From NCBI GenBank assembly GCA_025449535.1, contig JANWJF010000001.1:219406-283405 (forward strand): a stretch of DNA of 64,000 nt. Direction: 5' to 3'. Both the position numbers and the translations under genes were made by a program. Below, piece after piece: positions 1-51,891 of the stretch. Numbering within the stretch: the first letter of the stretch is position 1; the number at the start of each line of letters is the position of its first letter. This DNA comes from Candidatus Saccharimonadia bacterium. Its GTDB lineage: Bacteria; Patescibacteriota; SICC01. Under the pieces are notes generated by a model. The model saw only the letters and a list, made by a program, of their open reading frames with translations, had not been told where the DNA came from and searched no databases.

Positions 1-414
1 GATCATAGCTCCGACGAAGGCTAGCAGGATGCCGATGAACGTTTTCGCGTTCATATGTTCCTTGAGGAACTTGACCGAGAGTATACCCAGGAGCAGCGGC
101 CCTAGCAGGGTGATGACGCCAGAGTTGATGCTCGGGGCGTAGGTCAAACCGACGTTAAGCGCCAACGTCGCGAACGTGATGTAAATGAGCGAACTCAAGG
201 CCAAAAGCCCGAACTCTTTCCTCTTCAACGGTTTCCAAGTCCGGATAGCGAATGGCAACAGAATCAAGGAAGCCGCCAAGAACTTTGTTGCCATGAAAAG
301 CGTGAGTGGAAACGTCTCCAGGCCCAGCTTCACCATCGGGACGTTCACGCCCCAAAGCAGGCTTGCCGCTACGAGAGCAAGAATGGGCAACGTACTGTTT
401 TTGGGTTTTTGCAT
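1..414 (-). CDS. EamA/DMT-family transporter, N-terminal part (gene runs off the window start)
   Basis: Minus-strand ATG at 414 (MQKPKNSTLPILALVAASLLWGVNVP...). Continuous hydrophobic helices with EamA-like segments (LGPLLLGILSVKFLKE), no stop before position 1. Not in the ORF track because it is truncated. Confidence 0.6.
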   Translation of the reverse strand, partial: MQKPKNSTLPILALVAASLLWGVNVPMVKLGLETFPLTLFMATKFLAASLILLPFAIRTWKPLKRKEFGLLALSSLIYITFATLALNVGLTYAPSINSGVITLLGPLLLGILSVKFLKEHMNAKTFIGILLAFVGAMI

Positions 415-417
415 CTC

Positions 418-678
418 TTACCGCATCCATGAGACTAAGAGAATTACCGGGGCTGCGATCACCAGTCCGACCACTTCCGGCTTCCGCGCCGCGACTTCCA
501 CGTCGAAGCGCCGCAGCACGTCCCCGACCTTGTCGGCGGAGATGTCTGCGTTATACACCTCGAACTTCCCTGGCTCTTCGTTATCGAAGTAGAGGCGCAG
601 CCGGGTCGGCCAACCGCCATGCTCAAAGTCCCAGGCTCCCCAGGTAATGCTGTCGCCGAAGATGCAGACACGTGCCAT
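418..678 (-). pseudogene. SGNH/GDSL-hydrolase-like N-terminal fragment (86 aa)
   Basis: Starts MARVCIFGDSITWGAW (GDS(L) block I) but ends after 86 aa in a hydrophobic tail. SGNH hydrolases are about 200 aa, so this looks like a remnant. Confidence 0.3.
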
Positions 679-708
679 GGGTCTATCTTAACGGCTTCAT
701 CACCCCCG

Positions 709-807
709 CCCCACCTCGTGCGAGATGAGCCAAGGGTGATGCCTGTTTCAATCCGGTCGCTTGCGCGGGGATTGCTGACGCACCGCTTGCGCGGCACAGG
801 CATCGTC
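709..807 (-). repeat. Conserved 99-bp structured element, copy A (about 93% identical to 5532..5630)
   Basis: Lies between the stop of the zinc-ribbon gene (814) and the next minus-strand start (678). On the minus strand it has a 9-bp closing stem (GAUGCCUGU...ACAGGCAUC) enclosing two CGCGCAAGCG hairpins with GNRA (GCAA) tetraloops. Confidence 0.6.
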
Positions 808-813
808 GGGCCG

Positions 814-1080
814 TCAGGCCCCGATCTTCTCGAAGTGCTCCTCCAGGGTGTTTCGCTCCCGATGAAGGAACTTGCGGTCGTGCTCGGGGGTCCGCTGGGA
901 CGGTAGCCTGAAGGTCTTCCAGTTCCACGGCCAGAACGGCTGACTGAAGATCCACCCCCTGCCTTCACAGCGCCCGCAGGTGCTGCGCTCCTGGCTCTCG
1001 AAGCTGTAGAGGTTCAGGAATCCGCGCCCTTTGCAGGGCGGGCACCGCCACTTCTTGACCGGCTTGCCGGAAGTCCGCAT
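814..1080 (-). CDS. Small zinc-ribbon protein, paralog 1 (two CxxCxGxG motifs, 88 aa)
   Basis: Start trimmed to the internal Met (MRTSGKPVKKWRCPPCKGRG) by alignment with paralog 5639..5956. AAGGAGG sits 8 nt upstream of that ATG. Conserved C-terminal FWPWNW...FRLP...R..FLH.ER. Confidence 0.6.
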   Translation of the reverse strand: MRTSGKPVKKWRCPPCKGRGFLNLYSFESQERSTCGRCEGRGWIFSQPFWPWNWKTFRLPSQRTPEHDRKFLHRERNTLEEHFEKIGA

Positions 1081-1185
1081 CGACTTTTCGCCTCCTTGGT
1101 AAGATTCGCCACCGGGGGTCTGCATGCGATCCGGGTTCCGGATCGACTATGCATGGTACCCCGATTCGACGTATAAAGGTAAGTC

Positions 1186-1641
1186 ATGGACGAAAGCGCG
1201 GCATCAGCAGAGCATCTCAGGCAGTCCGAAGGCGAAGGCCAGGCGGACTGGTTGATACGGGTCACCGAAGCATTCAAGGACGACCCGCGCATAGAGCCCG
1301 CCGAGGCGCTGGTGGAATGCCTCAGGCGATCCGGCGACATCAACACCGGTGCCAGGATCACCCATGCGGTCGAGGTGACCGCCCTCCTGCTGCGAGCGCC
1401 GGGAACCGCCCGGGAAGAAAGCCGGTACCGAGAACTTGCCCAGGAAGCGGCGGACCTGTGCCCCGACGATACGACGAAGGCCATCCTTTGGACGCACATC
1501 GCCGAATACCTGCCGCCGGCCCAGCGGGCTTCCGCCATGCAAAAGGCACGAGATTCCCTTACGGGTGAAGGCAAGGAGTTGCCGAACGCTTTCGAACTGT
1601 TCGGGGACAAGGCGTTCGGACGCGGCGAGGCGTACGTCTAG
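1186..1641 (+). CDS. Hypothetical protein (151 aa)
   Basis: ORF with balanced amino-acid composition and an AAAGG SD-like sequence upstream. The overlapping minus-strand ORFs are Arg/Pro/Ala-rich artefact-like. Confidence 0.45.
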   Translation: MDESAASAEHLRQSEGEGQADWLIRVTEAFKDDPRIEPAEALVECLRRSGDINTGARITHAVEVTALLLRAPGTAREESRYRELAQEAADLCPDDTTKAILWTHIAEYLPPAQRASAMQKARDSLTGEGKELPNAFELFGDKAFGRGEAYV

Positions 1642-2258
1642 GGTCGACCGACGTATACTTCCAACCAACCCTGGTCGTCCTTTCCCTCCGGAGTCAGGAA
1701 CTCCGGGCGACCCAGCTGCCGGCGCGTCCTACGTATCAGGATCCGAATATGCTCGGTCCGGTGCTCGTTCATCCGCCAGTATTCTTCCTTCGTGAAGACA
1801 TCCCACGGCCGGCCGAACCGCTTCCGTTCCTGGCGCAGTTGGGCGGTGTCGCGCAGGACCTCGCAGACGGTCGACTCGTCTTCCAGGACCTGTATCCGGT
1901 ACTCTTCCAGCGTCACCGGTTCGTCCAGCATGGGGTCGAACACCCAGCCGTTCTCCGCGCAGACTACGTGACAGTTCCAGGAGAACCGCCCTTCGGTGGT
2001 GAGGAGCGCCACCTTCGGGAACCGTCCTATCGCGTGATCGAGCGGTTCGTAGTCCGAAGCGTGGAACAGCGTCAGCTGCGGGTCCGGTGACGGCGGCCGG
2101 AACGCGAGCAGCTCGGGTTCGCCACCTTCTTCAAGCCGGCGCCAGGCCAGCGCGCAAGCCACGTCCAGGCAGTTCCGGTCTCCTGGGTACGGGTCGCCCT
2201 GCTCCACGAAGGCCGCTTGCCTCCGGGCGAAGTACGCTTCTGATGATTCGATCGGCAT
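1638..2258 (-). CDS. Hypothetical protein (206 aa)
   Basis: Long ORF with coding-like composition; 4-nt tail overlap with the 1186..1641 ORF. Confidence 0.5.
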   Translation of the reverse strand: MPIESSEAYFARRQAAFVEQGDPYPGDRNCLDVACALAWRRLEEGGEPELLAFRPPSPDPQLTLFHASDYEPLDHAIGRFPKVALLTTEGRFSWNCHVVCAENGWVFDPMLDEPVTLEEYRIQVLEDESTVCEVLRDTAQLRQERKRFGRPWDVFTKEEYWRMNEHRTEHIRILIRRTRRQLGRPEFLTPEGKDDQGWLEVYVGRP

Positions 2259-2439
2259 AACGACCCATGATACCGAATTGATCGGCGTCCTGCCCTTAAT
2301 CTACCGTTCCATGGATCTCATAACCCCGCCGTAGAGGTACTTATATAGTTGGTGGCTTGTCATTATCCCTGACAAGCGCATGCTGCAGGCAAGATTCAAT
2401 AAGCTGAGCAGCGTTGACGCCTGCTTAAGGGGAACAAAA

Positions 2440-3333
2440 ATGAAAAGGTTCAAATATACGACAGTATCCGCACTAGTCGCTGCTTTGGCGATCGGTTTTC
2501 CGGCGCAGGCCCTGGCCGAGCCCACGGTCGACCTGGGCACCGCCGATGACTTCGCGGTCCTGGCCGGTACGGCCGTCACGAACGTGCCTACTTCCGCCAT
2601 CACCGGCGACGTAGGCCTCAGCCCGGCCGCCGGCAGCAACTACGCCGGCCTGACGGACGCGGAAGTGGACGGCACGATCTACGCGGTAGACGGCACCGGC
2701 CCGGCCGGCTCGGTCAACAATCCCGGCCTGCTGACGACGGCCAAGGGCGACCTGGTCACGGCGTATAACGACGCGGCGGGGCGGACGGTCACGTCCACCA
2801 TCGGCTCGGGACTCGGCGGGGTGACCCTGACGGAAGGCGTCTACGACTCCGCCGCGGGCACGTTCGCCCTGGGCGTAGGAACGACCCTGACGCTCAACGG
2901 ACAAGGCAACGCCGACGCGGTGTGGATCTTCCAGATGGCGACCACGCTGACCACGGGTTCCGGCAGCACGATCCTCCTCACCAACGGCGCCCAGGCCTGC
3001 AACGTCTTCTGGCAGGTCGGCAGCTCGGCGACGCTCGGCACGAACTCCACGTTCGTGGGCAACATCCTGGCCCTGACCTCCATCACGCTTACCACCGGCG
3101 CCGAAGTGGAAGGCAGCATGCTGGCCCGGAACGGCGCGGTGGCGATGGACTCGAACACCATCACCGACACGGCCTGTGCCGCGGTGATTCCGCCGGATGA
3201 TGACGACGGTTCCGGCGATGACGGATCGGACGACGGCTCGGACTCCGATGCCATAGGCTCGACCACCGGCTCGCTGGCTGTGGGCGACATCGTCCCGAAG
3301 CTTCCGAACGCAGGAGCCGGTCCCCGAAACTAA
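2440..3333 (+). CDS. Secreted DUF3494 (ice-binding-like) beta-helical protein with an acidic Asp/Gly/Ser linker and C-terminal LPNAG
   Basis: Signal peptide MKRFKYTTVSALVAALAIGFPAQALA. Then LGTADDFAVLAGTAVTNVPTSAITGDVGLSP, which matches the DUF3494 N-terminal signature. Thr/Gly/Asn-rich beta-solenoid-like body. SD AAGGGG before ATG 2440. Confidence 0.65.
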   Translation: MKRFKYTTVSALVAALAIGFPAQALAEPTVDLGTADDFAVLAGTAVTNVPTSAITGDVGLSPAAGSNYAGLTDAEVDGTIYAVDGTGPAGSVNNPGLLTTAKGDLVTAYNDAAGRTVTSTIGSGLGGVTLTEGVYDSAAGTFALGVGTTLTLNGQGNADAVWIFQMATTLTTGSGSTILLTNGAQACNVFWQVGSSATLGTNSTFVGNILALTSITLTTGAEVEGSMLARNGAVAMDSNTITDTACAAVIPPDDDDGSGDDGSDDGSDSDAIGSTTGSLAVGDIVPKLPNAGAGPRN

Positions 3334-3351
3334 GGCCGCGCCTCACGCACT

Positions 3352-4020
3352 ATGTCTGCCGATACGCGATCCAGACGAACGGTATCGGCAGTCCTCATGG
3401 CGGGACTGGTGCTGTCCCTGGCGTTGGCCGTCGATTCCTGGGGCAACCCGACCCCGCTTCCCTCGGGCAGTGCCGCGGTCCGTGGGTCCGAACGGACGGG
3501 ACTGCCGACGCGGCTCAGGATTCCGCGCATCAAGGTCCACGCGCCCATCGAGCATGTCGGCCTGACGCCGGACGGAGCGATGGACGTACCGAAGGAAAGC
3601 CCGATGAACGCCGCTTGGTACGACCTCGGGCCGCGTCCCGGGGATGCGGGGAGTTCCGTCATTGACGGACACTTCGGCACGACGGATGGCAGCCCGGCGG
3701 TGTTCGACGACCTGCGCCAGCTGCGTACCGGGGACCGGATCCAGGTCGAGGATGCGAGCGGGGCGAAGGTCACGTTCATGGTGCGCGGGTTCCGGACATA
3801 CCAGCCGGAAGAGGACGCAACGTCCGTGTTCAGTTCGAGTGACGGCCGGGCGCACCTTAATCTCATCACGTGCACGGGGGTGTGGAACCGGACCGAGCAA
3901 AGGTATTCCAACCGGCTCGTGGTCTTCACCGACCGCGACCTGCGTTTCGGACTGACCCGGCTGAGCGTCGTGCGCAACGACGACGCGCCCGGTTATGACG
4001 TCGCGTGGATCGGCTACTGA
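3352..4020 (+). CDS. Sortase-family transpeptidase (membrane-anchored)
   Basis: N-terminal TM, catalytic His (VIDGH), TLxTC-type motif NLITCTG, downstream Arg. Sits 19 nt after the DUF3494 gene. Confidence 0.7.
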   Translation: MSADTRSRRTVSAVLMAGLVLSLALAVDSWGNPTPLPSGSAAVRGSERTGLPTRLRIPRIKVHAPIEHVGLTPDGAMDVPKESPMNAAWYDLGPRPGDAGSSVIDGHFGTTDGSPAVFDDLRQLRTGDRIQVEDASGAKVTFMVRGFRTYQPEEDATSVFSSSDGRAHLNLITCTGVWNRTEQRYSNRLVVFTDRDLRFGLTRLSVVRNDDAPGYDVAWIGY

Positions 4021-4027
4021 CGGCCGA

Positions 4028-4447
4028 TCAGCTGCCCATCCCGCCGGTACCGATATTAAACAGCCAGTAGATCCCGTACTTGTCTATCAGCATCCCGAAG
4101 GTGTCGCCCCACGGCGCTGGCTTCAACGGCTCCAGGACCTTCCCGTCCTTGCTGAGCGATTCGAAATACTTGGTCAGGCGATCGGTGTCATCCCCTGACA
4201 ACGACAGGGCGACATTCGTGCCGGCGACGACGTCCTCGTCTTTCATGCCGTCGCTGGCCATCAGGGTGATCGCGTCGCTCTCCAGCACCCCATGCATCAC
4301 CAGGTCCTTGTTATGTGGTTTCGCCCCCGGCATGTCCCCGAACTTCATGATTTCCACCGTGCCGCCGAAGATACCTTTGTAGTACTCCAGCGCTTCGGCA
4401 GTGATGCTGGGGAAATTGAGATACGGGTTCAGTTTGACGTCGGGCAT
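4028..4447 (-). CDS. VOC/glyoxalase-superfamily protein (PhnB-like)
   Basis: 139 aa; PhnB-like pattern (MPDVKLNPYLNF...HGVLESD...WGDTFGMLIDKYGIYW). Confidence 0.55.
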   Translation of the reverse strand: MPDVKLNPYLNFPSITAEALEYYKGIFGGTVEIMKFGDMPGAKPHNKDLVMHGVLESDAITLMASDGMKDEDVVAGTNVALSLSGDDTDRLTKYFESLSKDGKVLEPLKPAPWGDTFGMLIDKYGIYWLFNIGTGGMGS

Positions 4448-4504
4448 GGGCCTCCTTGGTTCAGGTGGTAGTGCGGAGCCATTGTACGCTCACTGCGCGG
4501 GTTG

Positions 4505-5488
4505 TCATCCGGGATTTCGACGAAGGTCCACCCCCGGAGGAAATACTAGCCCTGGGGAGAGCAGGCCTTTCCGCGCCAGGACAGCGTGGACTTGCTCAAA
4601 GTTCCGGACCTCGGCTTTGAACCGGCTTTGGGAACGGTTCGGGTCCTCGCTGTAGCGCTGCAGATATCCGGCGGCCCGGTGGAAGTCTCCCGGCGCCGAG
4701 ATACCCTTGAACTCCTGCAGCGAGCAGACCGCCTGACCGAGCGCGGCATTGGTCGCGATATCGAATCGTTCGATCTCGACGGCTACCGCTTCCAGGCGCC
4801 GTAGGGTCGCCATGGCTTCCACGAATTGCTTAGTTTCGTTCTGGGTGTCTGCGGTAACGAGCAACAGCGTGGCTTCCTCCTCCTTGAACGCCGGTTTCTC
4901 CAGAAGCCGTTCGCAGTAGTCAGTGACCCGCTCCTGATCGCCTTCCCGGTAGAGGCCCAGTAGCGAAACTCGTTGCACTTCAGCATAGCCGTTCCGCACC
5001 TCGGGCAGGACCGCTTCCGCGGCTCCCCGTTCGTCCGAACCTTCGGCTAGCTCGGCGACGTCCGCGAGATAATCCAGCACAAGCTCAAGCTCACGAAGCG
5101 CGTCACTGTAATCTCCCTGGCCGTTCCACGCTTCCACACGCTGCACTACCCCGCGGGCTGCTCGTGCGGGATCGCCAAGCTTCTTGTGCAGTGCTTCAGC
5201 ACGGGTCGCGTGCCTCTCGACAGCAGGCCAGTCCTTTTGGGCGTGGCAGATCATGACCAGGAATTGCAAGTACTCGCCTTGGTGCGCTTCCTCCACGTCT
5301 TCCAGCGCGATCTCAAAGCGTGCGCGGACTCGCGGGAGGTCGTCCAGTCGCTCGTTGACCCAGTTCAGGGTTTGCTCACTGTCCGTAATCTCGCCGGTCT
5401 CCGGGTCGGTGAAGGCGGACATATCCAACTGCCGCACGATCAGTTCGCATTCCACCGGATTCAGTTTGTCCTGGTCTCCCATAACCAA
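4505..5488 (-). CDS. Hypothetical all-helical (TPR-like) protein (327 aa)
   Basis: Long ORF; helical-repeat-like composition; no recognised catalytic motif. Confidence 0.5.
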   Translation of the reverse strand: MVMGDQDKLNPVECELIVRQLDMSAFTDPETGEITDSEQTLNWVNERLDDLPRVRARFEIALEDVEEAHQGEYLQFLVMICHAQKDWPAVERHATRAEALHKKLGDPARAARGVVQRVEAWNGQGDYSDALRELELVLDYLADVAELAEGSDERGAAEAVLPEVRNGYAEVQRVSLLGLYREGDQERVTDYCERLLEKPAFKEEEATLLLVTADTQNETKQFVEAMATLRRLEAVAVEIERFDIATNAALGQAVCSLQEFKGISAPGDFHRAAGYLQRYSEDPNRSQSRFKAEVRNFEQVHAVLARKGLLSPGLVFPPGVDLRRNPG

Positions 5489-5531
5489 GAAGCGTAGCCG
5501 TTCTCTCCGGACGATTCAATCGTCACCCTTA

Positions 5532-5630
5532 CCCCACCTCGCACGAGATGAGCCAAGGGTGATGCCTGTTCCAATCCGGTCGCTTGCGCGGGAATCGGTA
5601 ACGCACCGCTTGCGCGGCACAGGCATCGTC
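5532..5630 (-). repeat. Conserved 99-bp structured element, copy B
   Basis: 7 mismatches in 99 bp versus 709..807. Same position relative to a zinc-ribbon paralog (stop at 5639) and the next minus-strand gene (start at 5488). Confidence 0.6.
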
Positions 5631-5638
5631 ATTGGCGT

Positions 5639-5956
5639 TCAGGCAGTACCGATTCCGGCACCGGCTTGCTCCAGTTGCCGCTCCAGGGCGTCGCGCTCCG
5701 GGTGGAGGAACTCACGGTAACGAGGCTCGGTCCGCTCATGCGGCAACCGGAACTCGACGCGGTTCCAGAACCAGAACGGACGCTTGAAGGTCCAACCCTT
5801 CCCGTCGCAATGCACGCATGTGCATGGCAGGACGGTCACCTGTCGCAGCGGGCCATTCTGGAAACTCTCGATCAGCACCGTCGTTTCGTGATGACAGCCC
5901 CGGCCCTGACAGCCCGGGCAACGCCATTTGGTCCCCGGCTTGGCGGAGGTCCACAT
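5639..5956 (-). CDS. Small zinc-ribbon protein, paralog 2 (105 aa)
   Basis: MWTSAKPGTKWRCPGCQGRG...CVHCDGKGW...FWFWNRVEFRLPHER. AAGGAG lies 8 nt upstream of the ATG. Confidence 0.65.
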   Translation of the reverse strand: MWTSAKPGTKWRCPGCQGRGCHHETTVLIESFQNGPLRQVTVLPCTCVHCDGKGWTFKRPFWFWNRVEFRLPHERTEPRYREFLHPERDALERQLEQAGAGIGTA

Positions 5957-6030
5957 ACTCTCACGCTCCTTGCTGGTAAGCTTCGTTGCAGGCCTTGGTG
6001 CGATCCGAAGGTTCCGGACCGACCATACCG

Positions 6031-6405
6031 TCAGGCGGTCGCGGCGGCGGCCTCCTTGGCCTCGGAATCTCGTACATCGTCTGGCAGGGCTTCCTTGGCC
6101 GTGTCGAATTGGTCCTTGCGGATCATCAGTTTGACCTGGATCGAGGGGCCTCCGGCGAAACGCGGACGCGTCAGCCAGCCTTCCGACTCTGGGAAGCTGA
6201 GTAGGATGCGCATGTCGAACCCGTTGGCGACCCAGACGTGTACTTCACGGACAAACCGCTCCACCTCCGCGATCGGAATCTGTTCGTCCATCAACGGGAA
6301 GTGCACGTACTCCGGATCGGTGCTTTCGGGTCTTTGAGGTGGCTGCTGCCTTCGTCCTGCTCGTCCCCTGCGCCCTCGGGCCTTGGTCCGCACTCGGCGT
6401 GCCAT
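6031..6405 (-). CDS. Hypothetical protein with a basic Arg-rich N-terminus (124 aa)
   Basis: ORF co-oriented with and upstream of zinc-ribbon paralog 2. Confidence 0.4.
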   Translation of the reverse strand: MARRVRTKARGRRGRAGRRQQPPQRPESTDPEYVHFPLMDEQIPIAEVERFVREVHVWVANGFDMRILLSFPESEGWLTRPRFAGGPSIQVKLMIRKDQFDTAKEALPDDVRDSEAKEAAAATA

Positions 6406-6595
6406 GACTCTCCTTTCGTTTCCGGTCGGGCGTCAGCGGGATTGCCGATGCCGGTTCCGGAAACGAAAAGTCTGTAAAGGTGCATCCCCTAGCGACTCAT
6501 CAGTGTACGCTTTGGGTAATACAGTCGTCCAATTCACCCAGCGGTACGCGTTAGAGCACGGCTAGCTTCGGTAAACCTTTAGAAACCTATGAGCC

Positions 6596-7384: not shown

Positions 7385-7531
7385 GACTATGCATAATACT
7401 GTAACCTAGCGTATAAAGAGAAGTCGTCCCTTTACATGCGCTTGGCTTCCAGGAGGGCCGCCGCGAGCCGTACCCAATCGTGGCTTTTTTCTGGAAACCA
7501 ACCCATCAATCCCCGAGGAAAGGATGTACCG

Positions 7532-8417: not shown

Positions 8418-8825
8418 ATGCGCGACATGCGGAAAGAGGACCCGGTCCTCAGGTCCGGAAACCGTTGGCGCAGGCTGCCAACCGTCCAAGTACCCGGCGA
8501 CCCCGAGGCGTTGCCCTGGGATCTGGGGAAACGCTCGGAGCAGGACATCCGGGACTCATGGCGGAAAGTCGCCGTCTTCCACGTCAGCCGGGTCGGTGGC
8601 CGAGGCGATGATCCGGTCAGATTCACGATCGGATTCCGGAATAGCTCCGGTGAGATCCACCGGCTCGGCTTTCTGATCATGGACCGGGAGTTCGGCATGG
8701 AAGTGGGTCACGAGGACGTCGAATTCGTCATCTTCGCTGGCAACCCCCTGGACGAGCTCAACCTCGTCCTCGTCGACGTCGTCGATAAGGACAATCCGGC
8801 CTGGAAACACCTACCGCTCTATTGA
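8418..8825 (+). CDS. Hypothetical protein (135 aa)
   Basis: ORF in an apparent operon with the two preceding genes. Confidence 0.45.
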   Translation: MRDMRKEDPVLRSGNRWRRLPTVQVPGDPEALPWDLGKRSEQDIRDSWRKVAVFHVSRVGGRGDDPVRFTIGFRNSSGEIHRLGFLIMDREFGMEVGHEDVEFVIFAGNPLDELNLVLVDVVDKDNPAWKHLPLY

Positions 8826-8953
8826 GCAAGGGGCAGGACCGCGACTTCGTGCATACCAGCACGCAAGAAGCACCTGTCCCGCCCCCTGAGACCGTCTCGA
8901 ACGAGGCGTCCTGAGGAGGCATTACTGACTACGGTGAACAAAAAACCGATGTT

Positions 8954-10777
8954 ATGGTATTTTTTATGGTCACCATGGTACAGAAGACCACACATCGAGA
9001 TACGCCCGGATCCGGAGAGCCTGGTCCGGAACGCACGGTCGAAGCGGGTCCAGATACGGAGCCCGGGGACGTCCTCGAACGGGTCGCGTGGTACTTCTCC
9101 GCCCCGATGGACCGGTTGCTCAGCCCCGAGAAGAGTCCCCGCCTGTCGGAAATCCGCGGATTGACGGCCGTGCTGCTGTACGACCACACGCCGCTCGAGC
9201 GCGGCGACATCGCGGAGTTCCTGGATCGCGCCGAGAACTACCTCTCCGAACTGATCGCCCGCACCCGGCGACAGTTGGGCGGGAGCGCGGAGTGGCGCGG
9301 CTTCTACGCCGACCTAACCGCCGAGACTCCGCCCGAGCTGTCCCTGTTGGACCAGTACCTGGCCGGATTCTGCCACGCATACGACGTGCCGCCGGACGTC
9401 ATCACTCAGCTAAATCCGAAGGACTTTATCAAGGAAGCACGCCAGGGATTGATCTACCGCCTGCAAGAGGAGACTCCCATCCCCCTGCAAGCATTGGCCG
9501 AGCGCTTCGGTTTCGGTGTTGAGAGGACCACGCTCGTCGAAACCCGTTACAGCGCGGAAGAGATATTCGCCCAGGACCCGGAAGCCTTGAGACGGATCAT
9601 GGCGATCGAACGGAGCGCCCGTTTACCCGCGGAGTCGCGTCCAGCCCGGAAAGTGGTAGACGGCATCCTGCAGGAAGCGGGCGCCGCCTGGGCGGATCTC
9701 CAAAGCCCCCGCCGCGGCCGGGAGTTGCTCCAGGCCCGCCGCCGGATCGTCAGACAGCTGTACTTCCGGAGTCCGATGGCGCCGCAGGAGATCGCGGAGA
9801 TCTTGCATCGTACGCCAGAACACGTCAGTCAGATCGCGAAGGAGATGGAGGCCTCCGAGGGCGACGATCCCGTGGTCGTCAAACCGGAACGCGTCTACGA
9901 GCGCGAATCGGAGCGGGTCTCACTGTTCTTCGGCATGCCGGTCGCCGGATATGAGAAGGACAGCGGCCCGCACCTGGCCCTGTTGCAGGTGCTGACTGAC
10001 CGGGGATTGACCGTGACGGAAATCGCAAGATGTGGCGGCGCCAACCGGACCCGGGTCCCCCAGTTCCTCGCAAGGTCGGCACGCCGCCGGAGCGAGGATC
10101 CGTTCTTTCGGCAGCTGGTCGAGGCCGTGGACGCCGGCGTGGAGCCGCCCGGCGGGAACGGCCTGATCGAAGCAGTGCTGGAAGCCAGCGCCAATCTGGC
10201 GGGGACAACCGTGGAAACGCTGCACCGGCATCCCAAGCAGGCGGAAGGAAGCGTTGCCCGAGACTGGGCCGCTTACCTGCTTCGGAAACGCGTCGGACTC
10301 AAGACACGTCACGTCCAAGAGCACGCCGGCCTGCCCTCCCCGAACCGGATACGGAAAGGAGTCGAGCGAGTATCGGAAGAAATTGCCCGTTCGGAAGAGG
10401 CGGCCGCCTTGGAACGGTTCGTTTGGCGGTGCCTGCTGGGGAACCACCTGGCTCCCGAGCAAGGCGACGCCGTGTTGTACTTCGCCCACGGATTGAACAG
10501 GCAGGTCCGGGTCGGCAGGGTCAAGGAAGTCCACGAAGAGGCAGAGGGGCGGCTGCTCATCATCAACGGGCACCGGCACCACGCGAAACATACGGCGTTC
10601 GCAGGCGATCCGAGCGTCCTGGATGCCGAAGCGGCGGCCGTGGTCATGCGGGAGCCGAACGCGCTCGATCTCTGGCTGACCAGCCATCGGGTCGGACCGT
10701 CGTTGGGGGAGCAGATGCGACAGGCGTTGCGGCGTGAACCCGTGCCTGGCAACGGTAATGCCTTGACCTCTGGCTGA
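8954..10777 (+). CDS. Large protein with about five degenerate DnaA-C-terminal-like HTH repeats (607 aa)
   Basis: Five segments read as DnaA domain-IV-like helix-turn-helix repeats: RLSEIRGLTAVLLYDHTPLERGDIAEFLDRAENYLSELIAR; PLQALAERFGFGVERTTLVETRY; RRIVRQLYFRSPMAPQEIAEILHRTPEHVSQIAKE; LALLQVLTDRGLTVTEIARCGGANRTRVPQF; ARDWAAYLLRKRVGLKTRHVQEHAGLPSPNRIRKGVERV. Start uncertain among four clustered Mets. Confidence 0.5.
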   Translation: MVFFMVTMVQKTTHRDTPGSGEPGPERTVEAGPDTEPGDVLERVAWYFSAPMDRLLSPEKSPRLSEIRGLTAVLLYDHTPLERGDIAEFLDRAENYLSELIARTRRQLGGSAEWRGFYADLTAETPPELSLLDQYLAGFCHAYDVPPDVITQLNPKDFIKEARQGLIYRLQEETPIPLQALAERFGFGVERTTLVETRYSAEEIFAQDPEALRRIMAIERSARLPAESRPARKVVDGILQEAGAAWADLQSPRRGRELLQARRRIVRQLYFRSPMAPQEIAEILHRTPEHVSQIAKEMEASEGDDPVVVKPERVYERESERVSLFFGMPVAGYEKDSGPHLALLQVLTDRGLTVTEIARCGGANRTRVPQFLARSARRRSEDPFFRQLVEAVDAGVEPPGGNGLIEAVLEASANLAGTTVETLHRHPKQAEGSVARDWAAYLLRKRVGLKTRHVQEHAGLPSPNRIRKGVERVSEEIARSEEAAALERFVWRCLLGNHLAPEQGDAVLYFAHGLNRQVRVGRVKEVHEEAEGRLLIINGHRHHAKHTAFAGDPSVLDAEAAAVVMREPNALDLWLTSHRVGPSLGEQMRQALRREPVPGNGNALTSG

Positions 10778-10879
10778 AAAACCCCCATACTAAGGGAAGT
10801 TCTGTTGGATAGGATCTTGTAACTACGATTTCGCTGTTCACCCGAACGGCGATTTATTTTCTTAACCCAAGGATCCAAC

Positions 10880-12971: not shown

Positions 12972-13027
12972 GAAACGAACGGATTGCCCCTGGTAGTGTT
13001 ACCACATTGCCGGGGGCGTTCGTTTTT
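12972..13027. terminator. Bidirectional intrinsic terminator between the convergent genes at 12323..12928 and 13037..14788
   Basis: AAACGAACGG ... CCGTTCGTTT stem with an inner TGGTA-GTGT-TACCA hairpin; A-run on the left, TTTTT on the right. Confidence 0.5.
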
Positions 13028-27756: not shown

Positions 27757-29274
27757 TCACCCGTCCGAGTGCGCCGTGGCCTGGCCCGCGCCGGGGACCG
27801 GGCAGACGTCGAGGCGGTCGCTCCACCAGCGCCGGCCGTCGCGCTTGAGCAGCTTGTCCGCCACGGCCGGACCCCAGGTGCCGCCGGCGTACGGCCGTGG
27901 CCGGACGGCCTGCCGCTCCCAGTGACGGAGGATCGGATCGACGAACCGCCAGGACGCCTCGATTTCGTCCGCCCGGGTGAAGAGTCCTTGGTTCCCGGCC
28001 AGCGCGTCGAGCAGGAGCCGGTCATAGGCGGACGGAAGCTTACCCGCGAACGCGTCACGGTAACAGAAGCTCATGTCTACCTCCTCCAGTGACTCCTGCG
28101 GCTCGCCGGGGCGCTTGAGGTAGAGCCGAAGGGCGATCCCTTCGTTCGGCTGGACGCGCAGGGTCAGCAAGTTGGCGCCGCCGTCATGGGCACGGACGCG
28201 ATGGCTCGACGGCTTGAACTGGACCGTGATCTCGGCCACCCGCTTCGGCAACCGCTTGCCGGTCCGAAGGTAGAACGGCACGCCCTTCCAGCGCCGGTTC
28301 GGCAGCTCGGCCCGAAGCGCCACGAACGTCTCGGTCCGCGACCGAGCCGCCACGTGCGGCTCCTCGCGATAGGCGGCCGTCCGCTTGCCGAGCAGGTCCT
28401 GTCCGGCGGCGTACTGCCCGGAGACCGTCCGCTCCGCGACCTGACGAGGCGTCGGCGGCTTGAGGCCGCGTAAGGCGGCGACCCGACGGGCCCTGACGTC
28501 CTTCGCCGACCAGGACGCCGGCGGTTCCATCGCGACCTGGGCCAGCAACTGCAGCGCGTGGCTTTGGATGACGTCCCGGAGCGCGCCGGCTTCCTCGTAA
28601 TACCGCCCGCGCGAGCCGACGGCTTCGTCCTCCGCCACCGTGATCTGCACGTGGTCGATATGGTCGCGGTTCCAGACCGGCTCGAACAGGCCGTTCTCGA
28701 ATCGGAAGGCCAGGATGTTCTGGACCGTGTCCTTGCCGAGATAATGGTCCATCCGGAAGATCTGCGATTCGTCGAAGTGGCGGGCGAGGTGCCGGTTGAG
28801 GCGCCGTGCCGAGGCCAGGTCCCGGCCGAACGGCTTCTCCAGGACGATCGCCGGCGTACCCTCGCCGACCCGCCGGTTGAGGCGCGCCTTGGCTAGCCCC
28901 TCGGCCACCGGCTCGAACAGGCTCGGCGGCGTCGCCAGGTAGTAGACCACGCGGCACGGCCGCTTGCCGATCTTCTTCGCGAGCGCCGGACCCCAGTCGT
29001 CGTTAGCGAGATCCGCGGTCACGTGCGCGAACTTCGCCGTCCGCGGCAGATCCGGTCCGGACGCCCCGGCGGCCCACTTCCCGAACGTCGCGTCCGTGTG
29101 CGGGTGCTGCGAGACGCCGACCAGCCGGAACGAGGGGCCGAGCAGGCCGTTCCGGGCCAGATGGCTGAGCGCCGGCAAGAGGTATTTGGCGGACAGGCCG
29201 CCGGTAGCGCCGAACAGGACGAGGACGGTCGGTCCCGTGATTTCGGTATGGGTGTCGGCGGCCGTCTTGGTCAC
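27757..29274 (-). CDS. zwf: Glucose-6-phosphate 1-dehydrogenase
   Basis: GTG start (VTKTAADTHTEITGPTVLVLFGATGGLSAKYLLPAL). Also DHYLGKDTVQNILAFRFENGLFEPVWNR and the G6PD C-terminus. The track's 1066-aa ORF is read-through into antisense of the GT genes. Confidence 0.85.
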   Translation of the reverse strand: MTKTAADTHTEITGPTVLVLFGATGGLSAKYLLPALSHLARNGLLGPSFRLVGVSQHPHTDATFGKWAAGASGPDLPRTAKFAHVTADLANDDWGPALAKKIGKRPCRVVYYLATPPSLFEPVAEGLAKARLNRRVGEGTPAIVLEKPFGRDLASARRLNRHLARHFDESQIFRMDHYLGKDTVQNILAFRFENGLFEPVWNRDHIDHVQITVAEDEAVGSRGRYYEEAGALRDVIQSHALQLLAQVAMEPPASWSAKDVRARRVAALRGLKPPTPRQVAERTVSGQYAAGQDLLGKRTAAYREEPHVAARSRTETFVALRAELPNRRWKGVPFYLRTGKRLPKRVAEITVQFKPSSHRVRAHDGGANLLTLRVQPNEGIALRLYLKRPGEPQESLEEVDMSFCYRDAFAGKLPSAYDRLLLDALAGNQGLFTRADEIEASWRFVDPILRHWERQAVRPRPYAGGTWGPAVADKLLKRDGRRWWSDRLDVCPVPGAGQATAHSDG

Positions 29275-29310
29275 GAATGCAGCATAGCATTGTGATATAG
29301 TCGACCCGCC

Positions 29311-29676
29311 ATGGCCGGTCCGAAGAAAATCCTGCTGATCGAAGACGACTTCCTCCTGTTGGAGATGTACGCGATCACGCTTTCCGGCGAAGGATACGAG
29401 GTCTACAAGGCGTCGGACGGCCGCCAGGGACTCGACCTGATCCAGAAGGAACGGCCCGACCTGATCCTGCTCGACCTCTCGATGCCGAGCATCTCGGGAT
29501 TCCAGGTGTTGGACGACCTTAAGGAATCCGGCGACGACACCCCGGTGATCGTGATCTCGAACACCGACGAGCGCGCCGCGATGGACAAGTGCAAGGAGCT
29601 CGGCGTGAAGGAGTACGTCGTGAAGGCGCGGACGAACCTCGACCAGATCAAGGACATCGTGAAGCGCTATCTCTGA
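29311..29676 (+). CDS. Single-domain response regulator (CheY-like receiver)
   Basis: ILLIEDD...DLILLDLSMP...VIVISN...K. Confidence 0.8.
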   Translation: MAGPKKILLIEDDFLLLEMYAITLSGEGYEVYKASDGRQGLDLIQKERPDLILLDLSMPSISGFQVLDDLKESGDDTPVIVISNTDERAAMDKCKELGVKEYVVKARTNLDQIKDIVKRYL

Positions 29677-29727
29677 CCCGCGGAAGTCCCGAATGAACCC
29701 AACAACCAGCAAAACCGAAAAGAAAAG

Positions 29728-30897
29728 ATGAAGATCCTGCTCGCGACCGAATCCTACTGGCCCAACCTCGACGGCGGGGCCATCTTCGAGCGCAACCTCG
29801 TCCTGGGACTCGGCGACCTCGGCCACGAAGTCCGGGTGGTGGCTCCGTCCCCCGACGGCAAGCCGCGGGTACAACAGGACGGCCGTTCGGAGGTGCACCG
29901 GACTCGGTCGCTCGGCCTCCCCGAACGGTTCGGGACACACGGCGCCAAGGGATCGCTCTTTCCCGGCAAGATCGTCCGCGACCTGGTGGACGGCTTCCGG
30001 CCAGACGTGATCCACGGCCACAACCACTTCTTCATCTGCCTGGCCGCACAGAAGGCGGCCCGGAAGCATGACATCCCCTATGTCGCGACGTACCACAACA
30101 TGCCGGAGAACGCCGTCGACAACCTGGGGCCGCTCAAGTACGTGGTCCCGGATCTGGTCGGGAAGATCTGGAAGTGGGACATGAAGTTCCTGAACCGCGC
30201 CAGCTACGTGACCTCCCCGACCAAGACCGCGATCGAGTACCTGGAGGCGCACGGGCTGGCCGCGCCGCACCGGCCGGTCTCGAACGGGATCAGCATCGAG
30301 AAGCACACCCCCGGACCGAAGCCGAAGGCGCTGGCCCGGAAGTACCGGCTGCCGGACAAGCCGATCGTGCTCTACATGGGCCGGCTGGACGGCGAGAAGC
30401 AGATGGACGTCTGGCTGGACGCCGCTGCCAAGATCCGCGAGGAGATCGACGCCCACTTCCTGATCGGCGGACGCGGCAGCAAGGCCGGAGCGCTGAAGCG
30501 GCAGGCCGCCTCGCTCGGGATCGCCCAGCACGTCACCTTCACCGGGATCGTGCCGGACAAGGACATGGGCGAATTCTACCGGCTCGGCGACGTCTTCGCG
30601 ATCAGTTCCCCGGCGGAACTGCAGAGCCTGGTGACGCTCGAGGCGATGGCCTCGGGTCTCCCGGTGGTGGCAGCCGACGCGATGGCCCTGCCCGAGCTTT
30701 GTCACAGCGGCCGGAACGGCTACCTTTTCCTCACGGGCAGCGCCGACGGGATGACCAAGAGCGTCGTCCGGATCCTCCAGAACCCGGCGATGGCCCGGCA
30801 GATGGGCGCGGAGTCGCGGAAGATCATCGAGAAGCACCACGACGTCCGCGAGATGCCGAAGCATTACGCGGCGGTGTACCAGGAAGCGATCGGGTAG
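29728..30897 (+). CDS. Glycosyltransferase family 4
   Basis: GT4 fold and EX7E-like C-terminal region. Confidence 0.8.
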   Translation: MKILLATESYWPNLDGGAIFERNLVLGLGDLGHEVRVVAPSPDGKPRVQQDGRSEVHRTRSLGLPERFGTHGAKGSLFPGKIVRDLVDGFRPDVIHGHNHFFICLAAQKAARKHDIPYVATYHNMPENAVDNLGPLKYVVPDLVGKIWKWDMKFLNRASYVTSPTKTAIEYLEAHGLAAPHRPVSNGISIEKHTPGPKPKALARKYRLPDKPIVLYMGRLDGEKQMDVWLDAAAKIREEIDAHFLIGGRGSKAGALKRQAASLGIAQHVTFTGIVPDKDMGEFYRLGDVFAISSPAELQSLVTLEAMASGLPVVAADAMALPELCHSGRNGYLFLTGSADGMTKSVVRILQNPAMARQMGAESRKIIEKHHDVREMPKHYAAVYQEAIG

Positions 30898-30901
30898 CGG
30901 C

Positions 30902-32155
30902 ATGAACATCGGCTTCTTCTCCGAGACGTACAAGCCGGACATCAACGGGGTGATCACCTCGATCGAGAGTTTCCGCCAGGAACTCGAGGCGGACGGTCAC
31001 ACGGTCTACGTCTTCGCGCCGGACCAGCGCTTCTTCCAGATGCCCTGGCAGAAGTCGAAGCGCGAGCGCCGGGTGTTTCGGTTCGGTTCGTTCCAATACC
31101 CCGCCTACAAGTCGATCCGGGTGGCGATGCCGCTCAACATCCCGGTGGCACGGAAGATCCCGTCACTGAAGCTGGACGTGGTGCATTCGCACACGCCGTT
31201 CTCGCTCGGGCTGTTCGCCAGCTGGGTAGCCCGGAAGTACGACATCCCCCACGTGCACACGTACCACACGCTGTATCCCGAGTACGCGAAATTCTACTTC
31301 CCCGGCTTCAAGAAGTGGAACCAGAAGGGCGCCGAGAAGCTTTCCGCCCTCTTCTGCAACCAGGCCACGGAGATCATCGCGCCATCCGACGACATCCGGC
31401 GGAAGCTCCGGAGCTACGGGATCCGCCGTCCGGTGACTACGCTGCCGACCGGCGTCGACAAGGAATTCTTCACCGTGAAGGATCCGGACCACGGCATCCG
31501 GAAGCGGTTCGGCATCCCGCAGGCCGCGCCGCTCCTGATCACGGTCGCCCGGCTCGGGCGCGAGAAGAGCATCGACTTCATCCTCCGTTCGTTCGTGAAG
31601 GTCCGGAAACAGCGGCCGGACGCGTATTACCTGATCGTCGGGGACGGCCCCGCCCGGCTCGAGTTGGAGACACTGAGCAAGGAACTCGGCGTCGCCGACC
31701 GCGTGGTCTTCACCGGGTTCCTGGGCAGCCGGACGGACGTCGTGCGGGCGTACGCGAACGCCGACCTCTTCGTCTTTGCCAGCCGCACGGACACCCAATG
31801 CCTGACCATCCTGGAGGCGGCGGCGACCGGCCTGCCGGTGGTGGCGGTCAAGGACAAGCCGCTGGAACTGGCGCTACATCACGGGCGGAACGGGTATGCC
31901 GTGCCGCCGCGAGAGGTCGCGTTCGCGGACAAGGCCGTGGCGCTGCTGGCGGACAAGGCGCGGATGCGACGGTTCGGGGCGGAGAGCCGGAAGATCGCCC
32001 GGGGCCTGTCCGCCAAGCAGCAGGCGAAGAAACTCGTGACGATCTATGAGCGCGCCCGGGCGGAGGAGTTCTCACCCCAGGACCCCAAGCGGCTCAGCGA
32101 GGCGTTCCGGCGCGTCCGGAAAGGCTTCGACCTCCGGTCGCGGATCCGGCGCTGA
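30902..32155 (+). CDS. Glycosyltransferase family 4 (glycolipid-synthase-like)
   Basis: MNIGFFSETYKPDINGV N-terminus with a GT4 C-terminal domain. Confidence 0.8.
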   Translation: MNIGFFSETYKPDINGVITSIESFRQELEADGHTVYVFAPDQRFFQMPWQKSKRERRVFRFGSFQYPAYKSIRVAMPLNIPVARKIPSLKLDVVHSHTPFSLGLFASWVARKYDIPHVHTYHTLYPEYAKFYFPGFKKWNQKGAEKLSALFCNQATEIIAPSDDIRRKLRSYGIRRPVTTLPTGVDKEFFTVKDPDHGIRKRFGIPQAAPLLITVARLGREKSIDFILRSFVKVRKQRPDAYYLIVGDGPARLELETLSKELGVADRVVFTGFLGSRTDVVRAYANADLFVFASRTDTQCLTILEAAATGLPVVAVKDKPLELALHHGRNGYAVPPREVAFADKAVALLADKARMRRFGAESRKIARGLSAKQQAKKLVTIYERARAEEFSPQDPKRLSEAFRRVRKGFDLRSRIRR

Positions 32156-51847: not shown

Positions 51848-51891
51848 TATGCTGCGGTTTTTCTTCTCGCTCGCTTTCCGAAAATTAACCA

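Follow-up and report, generated by a model that had tools for sequence, protein, structure and literature searches.

A noncoding element that occurs twice in the window (the whole 64,000-nt stretch of DNA analysed) is best read, with a probability of roughly 0.4, as a structured RNA specific to its lineage and situated at the 3′ end of zinc-ribbon transcripts. It would have been duplicated together with the zinc-ribbon gene and then retained by selection, its probable role being that of a platform for protein binding or processing. The computation singles out none of the four functions proposed for it in the first-pass annotation, i.e., a 3′-UTR stability or processing element, an ncRNA, a binding site of the zinc-ribbon protein, and a small mobile or duplicative unit.

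The Repeat Unit and the Adjoining Genes

The two copies of the element form a gap-free repeat on the minus strand (697-807 vs 5520-5630) with 90.1% identity over 111 nt and 11 mismatches, and both occupy the same position after the stop codons of paralogous genes:

697..807, minus strand, element copy A, 111-nt repeat unit (repeat comparison, fold, covariance model 131 bits)
5520..5630, minus strand, element copy B, 111-nt repeat unit (repeat comparison, fold, covariance model 134 bits)
814..1080, minus strand, zinc-ribbon paralogue A (P0002, 88 aa), with an AAGGAGG Shine-Dalgarno 8 nt upstream of the start
5639..5956, minus strand, zinc-ribbon paralogue B (P0001, 105 aa)

An alternative gene call for paralogue A gives 103 aa with the start at 1125. 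The proteins were expected to share ca. 50% of their residues and do so (51% identity), each displaying the two CxxCxGxG knuckles and the FW.WN / FRLP / FLH.ER tail described earlier. The Pfam DnaJ_CXXCXGXG model matches them with 24.6 and 15.6 bits, below its gathering score of 32.7. Overall, the protein has only a sub-threshold zinc-knuckle signature of the DnaJ/anti-TRAP type.

The element was initially delimited as a 99-bp unit with ca. 93% identity; the identity was reproduced with blastn for the 99-nt core (709-807 vs 5532-5630, 92.9%), but the length was underestimated. Since the full repeat spans 111 nt, the element extends ca. 12 nt further on its 3′ (minus-strand) side and includes a second long hairpin. 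The reported distance of 6-8 nt from the stop codon was confirmed, with 6 nt for copy A vs 8 nt for copy B and TGA as the stop in each case, and the spacer itself retains residual similarity between the copies. The edges of the conserved block are sharp and fall where the predicted structure begins and ends (see below). With up to three mismatches allowed, a 27-nt probe from the element hits just two sites in the window, vs none in 100 shuffles.

Conservation of the element far above that of the adjacent coding DNA, another earlier claim, is evident from its 90% identity over 111 nt vs 63% for the aligned zinc-ribbon coding DNA. The third codon positions of the gene pair are 51% identical vs 36% expected from composition, which is near saturation; hence, this asymmetry is genuine. 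The differences between the element copies comprise 10 transitions and a single transversion, vs 39:58 in the coding sequence (Fisher p = 0.002). A direct constraint at the nucleotide level, as suggested earlier, is plausible, but two sequences do not separate constraint from concerted evolution by gene conversion.

Predicted RNA Fold

Read on the minus strand, the element is predicted to fold into a three-way junction bearing two identical CGC-GCAA-GCG hairpins (P2 and P3, enclosed by P1), directly followed by a 15-bp hairpin (P4):

702-804, minus strand, predicted structured core of copy A
798-804 paired with 738-744, minus strand, P1 of copy A, extendable to 9 bp
780-797, minus strand, P2 of copy A, GCAA hairpin
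745-779, minus strand, P3 of copy A, GCAA hairpin with bulges
702-737, minus strand, P4 of copy A, 15-bp interrupted hairpin
5525-5627, minus strand, predicted structured core of copy B
5621-5627 paired with 5561-5567, minus strand, P1 of copy B
5603-5620, minus strand, P2 of copy B
5568-5602, minus strand, P3 of copy B
5525-5560, minus strand, P4 of copy B

Both copies contain the features noticed in the first-pass annotation, i.e., an outer stem of 9 bp and two CGCGCAAGCG / GCAA hairpins, and the GNRA loops indeed appear only in the minus-strand reading. The fold is unusually stable on this strand only, in line with the initial observation: the z-scores are -4.0 and -4.0, compared with -0.3 and -1.2 for the plus strand. 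Each copy contains 6-7 G-U pairs, which become A-C mismatches if the other strand is read.

The substitutions preserve the pairing. Five of the 11 differences fall in stems, and in all five the pair is kept via G-U (A-U to G-U, C-G to U-G, G-C to G-U), which works on the minus strand only; the others affect junctions, the loop of P4 or positions beyond the fold. Within that loop, CA vs TG amounts to an inversion of the palindrome centre. The RNAalifold consensus retains 38/38 pairs in both copies, and a 42-pair model places 97.6% of cells in pairs vs 35-45% with the partners slid, counts that are partly circular because the structure was derived from these same two sequences. No base pair has changed on both sides between the two sequences compared, and when the same substitutions were placed randomly on copy B, two or fewer pairs were broken in 22% of trials (P = 0.22, unbiased direction).

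Comparative assessment of structure and role is limited by the sample, i.e., two sequences from one species, whose four independent assemblies are 100% identical here. Searches of ca. 78 kb of this uncultured Patescibacteria genome, of JGI metagenomes and of collections of viruses, phages and plasmids gave no further copies, and no Rfam family matches the element. Thus, the searchable data hold two copies only and no covariation-supported structure in homologues, the outcome named beforehand in the first-pass annotation as counting against its view of the element.

Origin and Maintenance of the Two Copies

Similarity between the loci extends upstream of the zinc-ribbon genes:

1128..1144, minus strand, 5′-UTR hairpin GATCCGGAACCCGGATC preceding zinc-ribbon gene A (D13 and D17 among the repeat families)
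6002..6020, minus strand, homologous 5′-UTR hairpin GGTCCGGAACCTTCGGATC upstream of zinc-ribbon gene B
1145..1178, minus strand, promoter-like motif CTTTATAC-N16-ATGCATAGTC upstream of zinc-ribbon gene A, at the 5′ edge of the module
7385..7418, minus strand, second copy of the promoter-like motif, abutting the ATG of a 262-aa gene

The second promoter-like motif is followed on the same strand by genes of 262 aa and 124 aa, zinc-ribbon gene B, the element and the TPR-like gene. The genes downstream of the element do differ, as was stated initially: one copy is followed by a GDSL N-terminal fragment and then EamA, the other by an orphan TPR-like protein. Since the 5′-UTR hairpin is common to both copies, the whole module appears to have been duplicated, hairpin included. 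Likely, an ancestral module (promoter-like motif, 5′-UTR hairpin, zinc-ribbon ORF and element) was duplicated as a unit, after which the ORF would have diverged to ca. 50% amino-acid identity while the RNA stayed at ca. 90%. The latter may be held by purifying selection, possibly reinforced by gene conversion.

The association of the element with the zinc-ribbon gene holds inside the present genome but not beyond it. Billions of proteins yielded a family of four, and beyond the two paralogues described here its members, P0003/P0007 (loci L005 and L129) and P0005 (L006), have no element next to them. Hence, homologues in two other organisms do without the element, which is not required for the protein family.

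The same distribution agrees with a rather unlikely alternative, namely that the block has no function of its own and was kept or re-made by gene conversion, the fold being a by-product of a palindromic sequence rich in GC. Stretches of 30, 21 and 27 nt without a mismatch, together with the clustering of the differences, fit conversion tracts, and conversion restricted to the block could yield the same identity profile; the absence of covariation and the non-significant simulation point the same way. Against it, the edges of the conserved tract are not arbitrary points but the edges of the structure and the gene boundary, no consensus pair is broken by substitution, and the z-score of -4 is strand-specific. 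Moreover, the 10% divergence of the block implies that any conversion was not very recent, and neither the similar 5′-UTR hairpin nor the C-terminal coding half was homogenised.

Another, unlikely, origin is the insertion of a mobile or site-specifically integrated 99-nt core with duplication of a TGACGAT target, the identity then reflecting younger age or mobility. The core of copy B is indeed flanked by perfect direct repeats:

5625..5631, minus strand, TGACGAT 7-nt direct repeat, 5′ copy
5519..5525, minus strand, TGACGAT 7-nt direct repeat, 3′ copy

In addition, the element-free loci L005 and L129 carry a single TGACGAT 5 nt past the stop codon, where their similarity to the window ends, and the size and strong secondary structure resemble those of small non-autonomous bacterial repeats. 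However, the sequence past the 3′ repeat is unrelated to L005, so a true “empty site” is not demonstrable. The equivalents in copy A (CGACGAT at the 5′ place and a degenerate TGATGAA at the 3′ place) match each other at only 4/7 positions, evidence against a further insertion that was both recent and independent, and 13 other TGACGAT sites in the window are unoccupied. Terminal inverted repeats are absent, both copies known in the ca. 78 kb reside at the same position after paralogous genes, and no transposase, integrase or reverse transcriptase is among the precomputed Pfam matches of called genes in the interval that begins 4.4 kb ahead of the window and ends at position 15956.

Putative Role of the Element

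In the favoured scenario, the element would act as an RNA domain of ca. 105-111 nt forming the 3′ tail of each zinc-ribbon mRNA or the stretch that separates it from the next gene. In both copies P4 lacks a subsequent U-tract (terminator prediction lists none there), an informative absence since canonical hairpin-plus-U-tract terminators exist elsewhere in the window, e.g., at 12985-13018 and 10831-10852. Given this absence and a fold that begins immediately beyond the region covered by a ribosome halted at UGA, a pre-folded platform seems most likely, its role combining binding with processing or stability at the 3′ end of the zinc-ribbon message. As the tips of the two hairpins are identical, the element may be recognised by a dimer or by two copies of a protein. 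Most simply, this partner would be the co-encoded zinc-ribbon protein, potentially enabling feedback control. Domain searches, Pfam included, demonstrated no nucleic-acid-binding domain in this protein, and its structure prediction (pLDDT 45) gave no usable model.

The next start codon on the same strand follows the element after 18 nt in copy A and after 37 nt in copy B, and EamA transporters are common riboswitch targets. The element may accordingly be viewed as a 5′ leader, an attenuator or riboswitch-like device with the junction as sensor and P4 as expression platform, which would govern either read-through into, or translation of, the GDSL/EamA genes and the TPR-like/glyoxalase-like genes. 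The P1 3′ strand can instead extend P4 in copy A, and a 5′ extension of P1 competes with P4 in copy B (pair I8), so alternative folds are possible. These pairings are not conserved between the copies, and the downstream genes are unrelated; the spacing to the upstream stop is conserved, whereas that to the downstream start is not. Furthermore, P4 lacks a U-tract and sequesters no usable ribosome-binding site (its SD-like 3′ strand is ca. 21 and ca. 40 nt from the start codons), 90% identity is atypical for riboswitch copies in one genome, and Rfam offers no matching family. The leader function is thus considered improbable.

Action at the DNA level, as a ssDNA hairpin or a dsDNA protein-binding site (e.g., a recombination site, or an operator with two CGCGCAAGCG boxes 26 bp apart), is very improbable. 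The minus strand outperforms shuffles with DNA parameters too (z = -1.5 and -3.1), but these scores and the strand asymmetry are weaker than for RNA. The motif is a direct repeat of 10 nt, and the inverted palindrome centre in the P4 loop suggests hairpin- or cruciform-mediated DNA events. Tolerance of G-T on one strand is also a property of ssDNA recombination sites; at the same time, GNRA loops and the G-U pairs are typical of RNA, the attC core sites GTTRRRY and RYYYAAC are absent from both strands, and the Pfam matches around the element contain no recombinase.

Least probable of all is an independent trans-acting small RNA gene with P4 as the 3′ stem. RNAs derived from 3′-UTRs have a matching size, a strong terminal hairpin and a position at the gene 3′ end, and the fold statistics (z about -4) would suit one. 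Still, no promoter-like site is predicted inside the zinc-ribbon ORF ends, the U-tract is absent, the only target complementarity identified spans 6 nt (CCUUGG/CCAAGG) and involves the Shine-Dalgarno region of the zinc-ribbon gene, and a trans-acting RNA does not need two copies at 90% identity. The SECIS reading failed its test, and no frame through the element is substituted in the manner of coding DNA or keeps its ORF length from copy to copy.

Comparison with Known Systems

Diversity-generating retroelements are common in Patescibacteria, and their TR/VR pairs resemble the two ca. 110-nt repeats, ca. 90% identical within 5 kb. Here, adenine specificity of the mismatches is absent in both directions and on both strands, both repeats are noncoding, and the families listed for the called genes between and beside the repeats include no reverse transcriptase. 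Integron attC sites are likewise imperfectly palindromic, ca. 100 nt long, folded on one strand and located immediately 3′ of a small ORF, but the element has no R′′/R′ core sites, integrase or cassette array, and the genes between its copies carry no such element. P4, a stable GC-rich hairpin just after a gene, recalls an intrinsic (Rho-independent) terminator; a canonical one is rejected by the missing U-tract and the 65-nt three-way junction preceding the hairpin.

REP/BIME, Correia/NEMIS, RUP, ERIC and MITE-/PATE-like repeats resemble the element in length (ca. 100 nt), in the high similarity of their copies, in their strong hairpins, in being located directly past stop codons and in their short flanking direct repeats (seen in copy B). 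The element differs in its lack of terminal inverted repeats (the MITE reading failed its test), in having only 2 copies in ca. 78 kb, in the shared position of both after paralogous genes, and in the absence of a transposase or RAYT among annotated neighbours.

As in protein–RNA autoregulatory pairs (ribosomal-protein leaders, ToxIN type III, phage coat-protein operators), a small protein gene here adjoins a structured RNA, whose repeated identical hairpins may be binding sites of the protein. Unlike in these pairs, the element is downstream rather than upstream, forms no tandem array, and its locus matches no PADLOC model.

Another parallel is provided by the gene-associated orphan structured RNA motifs, recorded as Rfam “Cis-reg” and candidate ncRNA motifs, from the comparative genomic surveys by Weinberg and Breaker (e.g., PMC2864571). 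The element differs from them in lacking an Rfam match, in lying 3′ and not 5′ of its gene and, being confined to two copies in one species, in offering no covariation. It shares with them a multi-stem junction, GNRA-capped hairpins in a UTR, association with one gene family, placement on the presumably transcribed strand and conservation above the surroundings.

The repeat pair and its conservation

The two zinc-ribbon ORFs of the minus strand, 814–1080 and 5639–5956, encode proteins of 51% identity, both with a pair of CxxCxGxG knuckles and a tail of conserved aromatic and basic residues. A conserved block begins past the TGA stop of each gene, 6 nt from it in copy A and 8 nt in copy B:

697–807, minus strand: copy A of the element, following the zinc-ribbon gene 814–1080
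5520–5630, minus strand: copy B of the element, following the zinc-ribbon gene 5639–5956

The first-pass annotation had singled out a 99-nt core as better conserved than the adjoining coding DNA, and this asymmetry turned out to be both real and large: the core is 92.9% identical between the copies (blastn) vs. 63% for the aligned zinc-ribbon coding DNA. The full repeat extends over 111 nt without gaps and with 11 mismatches, and similarity is lost abruptly at either edge. The third codon positions of the zinc-ribbon genes are 51% identical as compared with 36% expected from composition, hence their synonymous sites are near saturation. The G+C content of the window is 64.5%. The same DNA is found in the NCBI assembly GCA_036560925.1, in a 681-kb JGI contig, and in the Logan assemblies of two sequencing runs; the four assemblies of this organism checked for population variation are all 100% identical to the window where they overlap it.

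Predicted fold and pattern of substitutions

The fold predicted for the minus-strand RNA has z = −4.0 in both copies, and that for the plus strand −0.3 and −1.2; DNA folding parameters yield the same strand preference in a weaker form. The consensus obtained with RNAalifold comprises four helices:

P1: 9 bp, GAUGCCUGU / ACAGGCAUC, closing P2 and P3
P2: hairpin with a GCAA cap
P3: hairpin likewise capped by GCAA, with two bulges (C and ACC)
P4: interrupted hairpin of 15 bp immediately following P1

P4 was absent from the earlier description of the element. The tips of P2 and P3 are one identical 10-mer, CGCGCAAGCG. P1 starts 9–11 nt past the stop codon, which we take, from general knowledge of ribosome footprints, to be close to the edge of a terminating ribosome. 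A stand-alone sRNA, i.e., an RNA acting apart from the zinc-ribbon message, is considered very improbable.

Ten of the 11 differences between the copies are transitions, whereas the ORFs show 39 transitions and 58 transversions (Fisher p = 0.002). Stems contain five of the differences, and every pair affected is kept by a switch between Watson–Crick and G-U; the remaining ones are located at junction positions (three), in the P4 loop (two), and outside the fold (one). There are 6–7 G-U pairs per copy, which become A-C mismatches if the other strand is read, and the pattern of the minus strand fits RNA or, possibly, single-stranded DNA. The latter option and the strand preference under DNA parameters speak for a site operating at the DNA level; the preference is stronger under RNA parameters, and such a site is considered improbable. 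In the P4 loop, CA (722–723) faces TG (5545–5546), an exact inversion at the center of the palindrome CTCG-NN-CGAG, so this change is probably a single hairpin-mediated inversion and not two point mutations.

This fit falls short of proof. Two-sided covariation amounts to zero changes and one-sided pair-preserving changes to five, in a comparison of only two sequences from both of which the fold was derived. When the same number of substitutions was placed randomly on copy B, 22% of the trials broke no more than two pairs. Concerted evolution without function, in which the copies would have been kept alike with no role for the fold, agrees with this frequency and has to be set against the retention of every stem pair; it is judged unlikely.

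The duplicated module

The duplication of a module consisting of the zinc-ribbon gene and the element, as proposed in the first-pass annotation, was confirmed, but the module is larger than described there, since a 5′-UTR hairpin and a promoter-like motif belong to it as well:

1128–1144 and 6002–6020: hairpin shared by the 5′-UTRs of the zinc-ribbon genes
1145–1178 and 7385–7418, minus strand: promoter-like motif CTTTATAC-N16-ATGCATAGTC, also present at ~870–905 of L005 and ~11–46 of L129 (loci of zinc-ribbon homologs in other organisms)

The motif occurs only twice in the 64-kb window, copy A of the module being preceded by the first occurrence, and both occurrences head transcription units containing a zinc-ribbon gene. 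That at 7385–7418 abuts the ATG of a 262-aa gene, the first in the run of same-strand genes with copy B, suggesting a leaderless mRNA. In L005 and L129, the motif likewise lies upstream of the homolog gene. The palindrome TATGCATA is found inside the motif at 7385–7418 and in L005, with ATGCAT in its place at 1145–1178; the motif of L129 differs at two positions (ATGTACAGTC). Given the shared UTR hairpin and promoter-like motif, the duplication took in the whole module, from the promoter-like motif and UTR hairpin through the ORF to the 3′ element, and these parts then diverged at very different rates.

A leader serving the downstream genes is an alternative reading of the element. P4 (AUCACCCUU) resembles the 16S rRNA tail, as an anti-Shine–Dalgarno element would; by our own count, its Shine–Dalgarno-like 3′ strand is ~21 and 40 nt away from the next start codons, and hence offers no usable sequestered ribosome-binding site. 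The downstream genes of the two copies are unrelated and covariation is absent, so a riboswitch or another cis-regulatory leader is not indicated. A leader role is therefore doubtful, although somewhat less so than a DNA-level site.

The zinc-ribbon protein family

Both proteins score below the 32.7-bit gathering threshold of Pfam DnaJ_CXXCXGXG (24.6 and 15.6 bits), and the score with NCBIfam RtpA (anti-TRAP), whose cut-off is 65, is 22 bits. The best matches of the PDB profile search have E ≥ 0.045; the likeness to the structures of DnaJ, anti-TRAP, and the Q antiterminator is sub-threshold and confined to the zinc-knuckle motif. The AlphaFold model is of low confidence (pLDDT 45).

Only four real members of the family turned up in the searched databases, where 5.8 billion clusters were screened with a word-indexed search and 1.84 billion representatives with a full HMMER scan: P0001 and P0002, encoded next to copies B and A, respectively, P0003 (clustered with the near-identical P0007; loci L005 and L129), and P0005 (locus L006). 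Another candidate, P0004, proved to be repeats translated spuriously. Between organisms, the zinc-ribbon proteins are only ~40–51% identical, and the neighboring non-coding motifs 76–86%; judging from these alignments, the proteins seem to evolve at an unusually high rate.

Search for further copies of the element

L005, L129, and L006 share conserved upstream non-coding motifs with the window and hence represent related organisms. After their zinc-ribbon genes, no copy of the element was found by nhmmer, by the covariance model, or by eye. In L129, the gene is followed by ~330 nt of other sequence with a canonical terminator at its end (~680–735; AGGCCTTCG...CGAAGGCCT, then TTTTTCTTT), so organisms related to the source do use hairpin-plus-U-tract terminators. 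The spacer after the gene of L006 is only 42 nt long, and the 3′ region of L005 displays no unusual structure. The TPR-like protein encoded downstream of copy B, an orphan matching only itself, could not serve as a synteny handle.

The covariance model of the element, run over the window and the loci L001, L005, L006, and L127, recovered only the two known copies, apart from a partial match of 60 nt (58041–58100, 23 bits) within the minus-strand ORF 57950–60004. In the genome collection, the loose pattern CGCGCAAGCG-N12-30-CGCGCAAGCG occurred at at least 119 loci; all of the matches listed were noise by nhmmer, and the source genome was not among them. A transition-tolerant P2–P3 pattern gave one chance match, inside an Ada/MGMT-like ORF, in a metagenome collection evidently lacking the source genome. 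No copy was detected in viral contigs with three patterns or in the phage and plasmid collections with blastn. Overall, DNA scans and the matches listed in the genome collection brought up no homologs of the element in other species. The copy count in the ~78 kb of this genome that was read is thus two, both copies lying beside zinc-ribbon paralogs; the association proposed earlier holds on this scale, the longest contigs of the source genome being 681 kb and 813 kb.

Neighboring features

Another strong fold is the hairpin 6406–6480 (minus strand, z = −5.0), situated upstream of the 124-aa ORF ahead of zinc-ribbon gene B. Its counterpart at 870–950 of L006 (plus strand, z = −5.6) lies upstream of the gene pair preceding the zinc-ribbon homolog; the central 51 nt are 86% identical and include one compensatory change, U-A to C-G. 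The 3′ strand of the hairpin enters the Shine–Dalgarno region, making it a separate candidate cis-regulatory leader. Homology of P3 to this hairpin (6416–6470) is marginal for the window copy (shuffle p = 0.02–0.05) and not significant for that of L006, and was not accepted.

The non-coding stretch 8836–8925 (plus strand), located 3′ of a 135-aa gene (8418–8825) and upstream of a DnaA_C/HTH-like gene (8954–10777), is 76% identical to L005 91–181 (minus strand), which points to partial synteny and to another conserved intergenic block.

After copy A, gene 418–678 (minus strand) covers no more than the first 86 aa of a GDSL-type lipase (1–68 of the 178 positions in the Pfam profile). The gene is truncated where an EamA transporter gene starts, and is thus likely a pseudogene remnant marking a rearrangement. 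Between the copies, 2380–4020 (plus strand) encodes a secreted, ice-binding-like protein (DUF3494) with a sorting signal of the LPNAG type at its end, and a sortase gene follows directly. Farther away, ORF 44054–51913 (minus strand; 2619 aa, YadA-head repeats) is probably a giant surface adhesin. ORF 27757–30957 (minus strand; 1066 aa), with a complete glucose-6-phosphate dehydrogenase in its C-terminal half and ~580 N-terminal aa lacking a Pfam match, may represent a fusion or have been called too long.

Possible origin by insertion

The 99-nt core of copy B is bordered on both sides by perfect 7-nt direct repeats, TGACGAT. In L005 and L129, a single TGACGAT is found 5 nt past the stop, and similarity to the window ends there, so that copy B and these loci look like a filled and an unfilled site. 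However, the flanks of copy A, CGACGAT and TGATGAA, match at only 4 of 7 positions, the sequence past the 3′ repeat is unrelated to L005, and 13 other TGACGAT sites in the window are unoccupied. Moreover, the element lacks terminal inverted repeats, and the families listed for the genes called around it include no transposase, integrase, or reverse transcriptase. An insertion-derived repeat is hence regarded as unlikely, a little more so than concerted evolution without function; the flanks at most suggest a single ancestral insertion that predates the duplication of the module, and two recent independent insertions are unlikely.

Tentative interpretation and significance

The preferred reading, held at a probability of about 0.4 and thus tentative, takes the element to be a structured RNA domain, specific to this lineage, at the 3′ end of the zinc-ribbon transcripts, duplicated together with the gene and maintained by selection, with gene conversion possibly helping selection to keep the copies alike. 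Such an element would act as a pre-folded platform for protein binding, processing, or stability. In the predicted fold, the occurrence of two identical GCAA hairpins suggests a protein partner that is dimeric, for which the co-encoded zinc-ribbon protein would be the simplest candidate.

A bolder proposal combines this partnership with the insertion. It envisages that the zinc-ribbon gene and the 111-nt RNA make up an undescribed cognate protein–RNA module, in which a small structured RNA-like sequence would have been inserted with a 7-nt target duplication, and the very fast-evolving small zinc-ribbon protein would recognize both CGC-GCAA-GCG hairpins in the tail of the message encoding it. 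The outcome might be feedback control or a toxin/antidote-like ribonucleoprotein. This proposal is less likely than the simple insertion reading, but more likely than a leader role.

Known from two sequences of one uncultured species, the element is a reasonable candidate for a new orphan RNA motif rather than an established one, and a two-copy feature of a single species cannot yet carry a claim of family, structure, or function. If it is a functional RNA, it would represent an orphan structured RNA of Patescibacteria, a small-genome phylum with very little experimental study, tied to a tiny, rapidly diverging protein family with four members among billions of predicted proteins. It would also provide a small testable case of protein–RNA recognition or of control at the message 3′ end, in an organism with short intergenic regions.

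Comparison with known systems

The proposed Rfam/Infernal check was carried out, and no family reached its gathering threshold for the element. Rfam 15 at gathering thresholds returned only two tRNAs from the whole window; permissive scans of 400–6500 and of each element alone gave chance-level matches (E ≥ 0.9). The best of these, CRISPR-DR10, scored 13.5 bits vs. a threshold of 39. The weak likeness of P3 (its GGAUUGAAAC end) to this family has E = 1.7, is missing from copy B, and is accompanied by no array in the window, and was therefore rejected. The defense-system models of PADLOC gave no match.

An intrinsic terminator was rejected as well: the 15-bp stem of P4 is present, but neither copy is followed by a U-tract (the sequences after P4 are GAUGAAGCC and GACGAUUGA), and the terminator scan reported no site at either element. 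Canonical hairpin-plus-U-tract terminators are present elsewhere in the window. A bacterial SECIS or read-through signal would find UGA at both stops, but the 6- and 8-nt spacers put read-through into different frames, with unrelated peptides of 21 and 40 aa, which excludes such a signal. Regarding small ORFs, the minus frame MPVPRKRCV... stops after 36–38 aa in copy B and runs for more than 110 aa in copy A, with only 4 of 11 nucleotide differences synonymous by our own codon count; in the open plus frame, every change is non-synonymous. The element is thus non-coding.

Among mobile and recombining repeats, integron attC sites are not matched, RYYYAAC and GTTRRRY being absent from both strands of each element with 30–40 nt of flanks. 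The lack of terminal inverted repeats speaks against MITEs and non-autonomous DDE transposons: when the first 30 nt were aligned locally with the reverse complement of the last 30 nt, nothing above noise was obtained (best score 6). The template/variable repeat pair (TR/VR) of a DGR is excluded on three grounds, i.e., mismatches that are not adenine-specific, non-coding repeats, and no RT nearby (from 4.4 kb ahead of the window to position 15956, the domains listed for the called genes include no RT). In a DGR, mismatches occur at TR adenines only, whereas A stands at 3 of 11 (copy A) and 2 of 11 (copy B) mismatches on the minus strand of the element, and at 1 and 4 of 11 on the plus strand; the VR lies inside the target ORF, whereas both copies of the element are intergenic.
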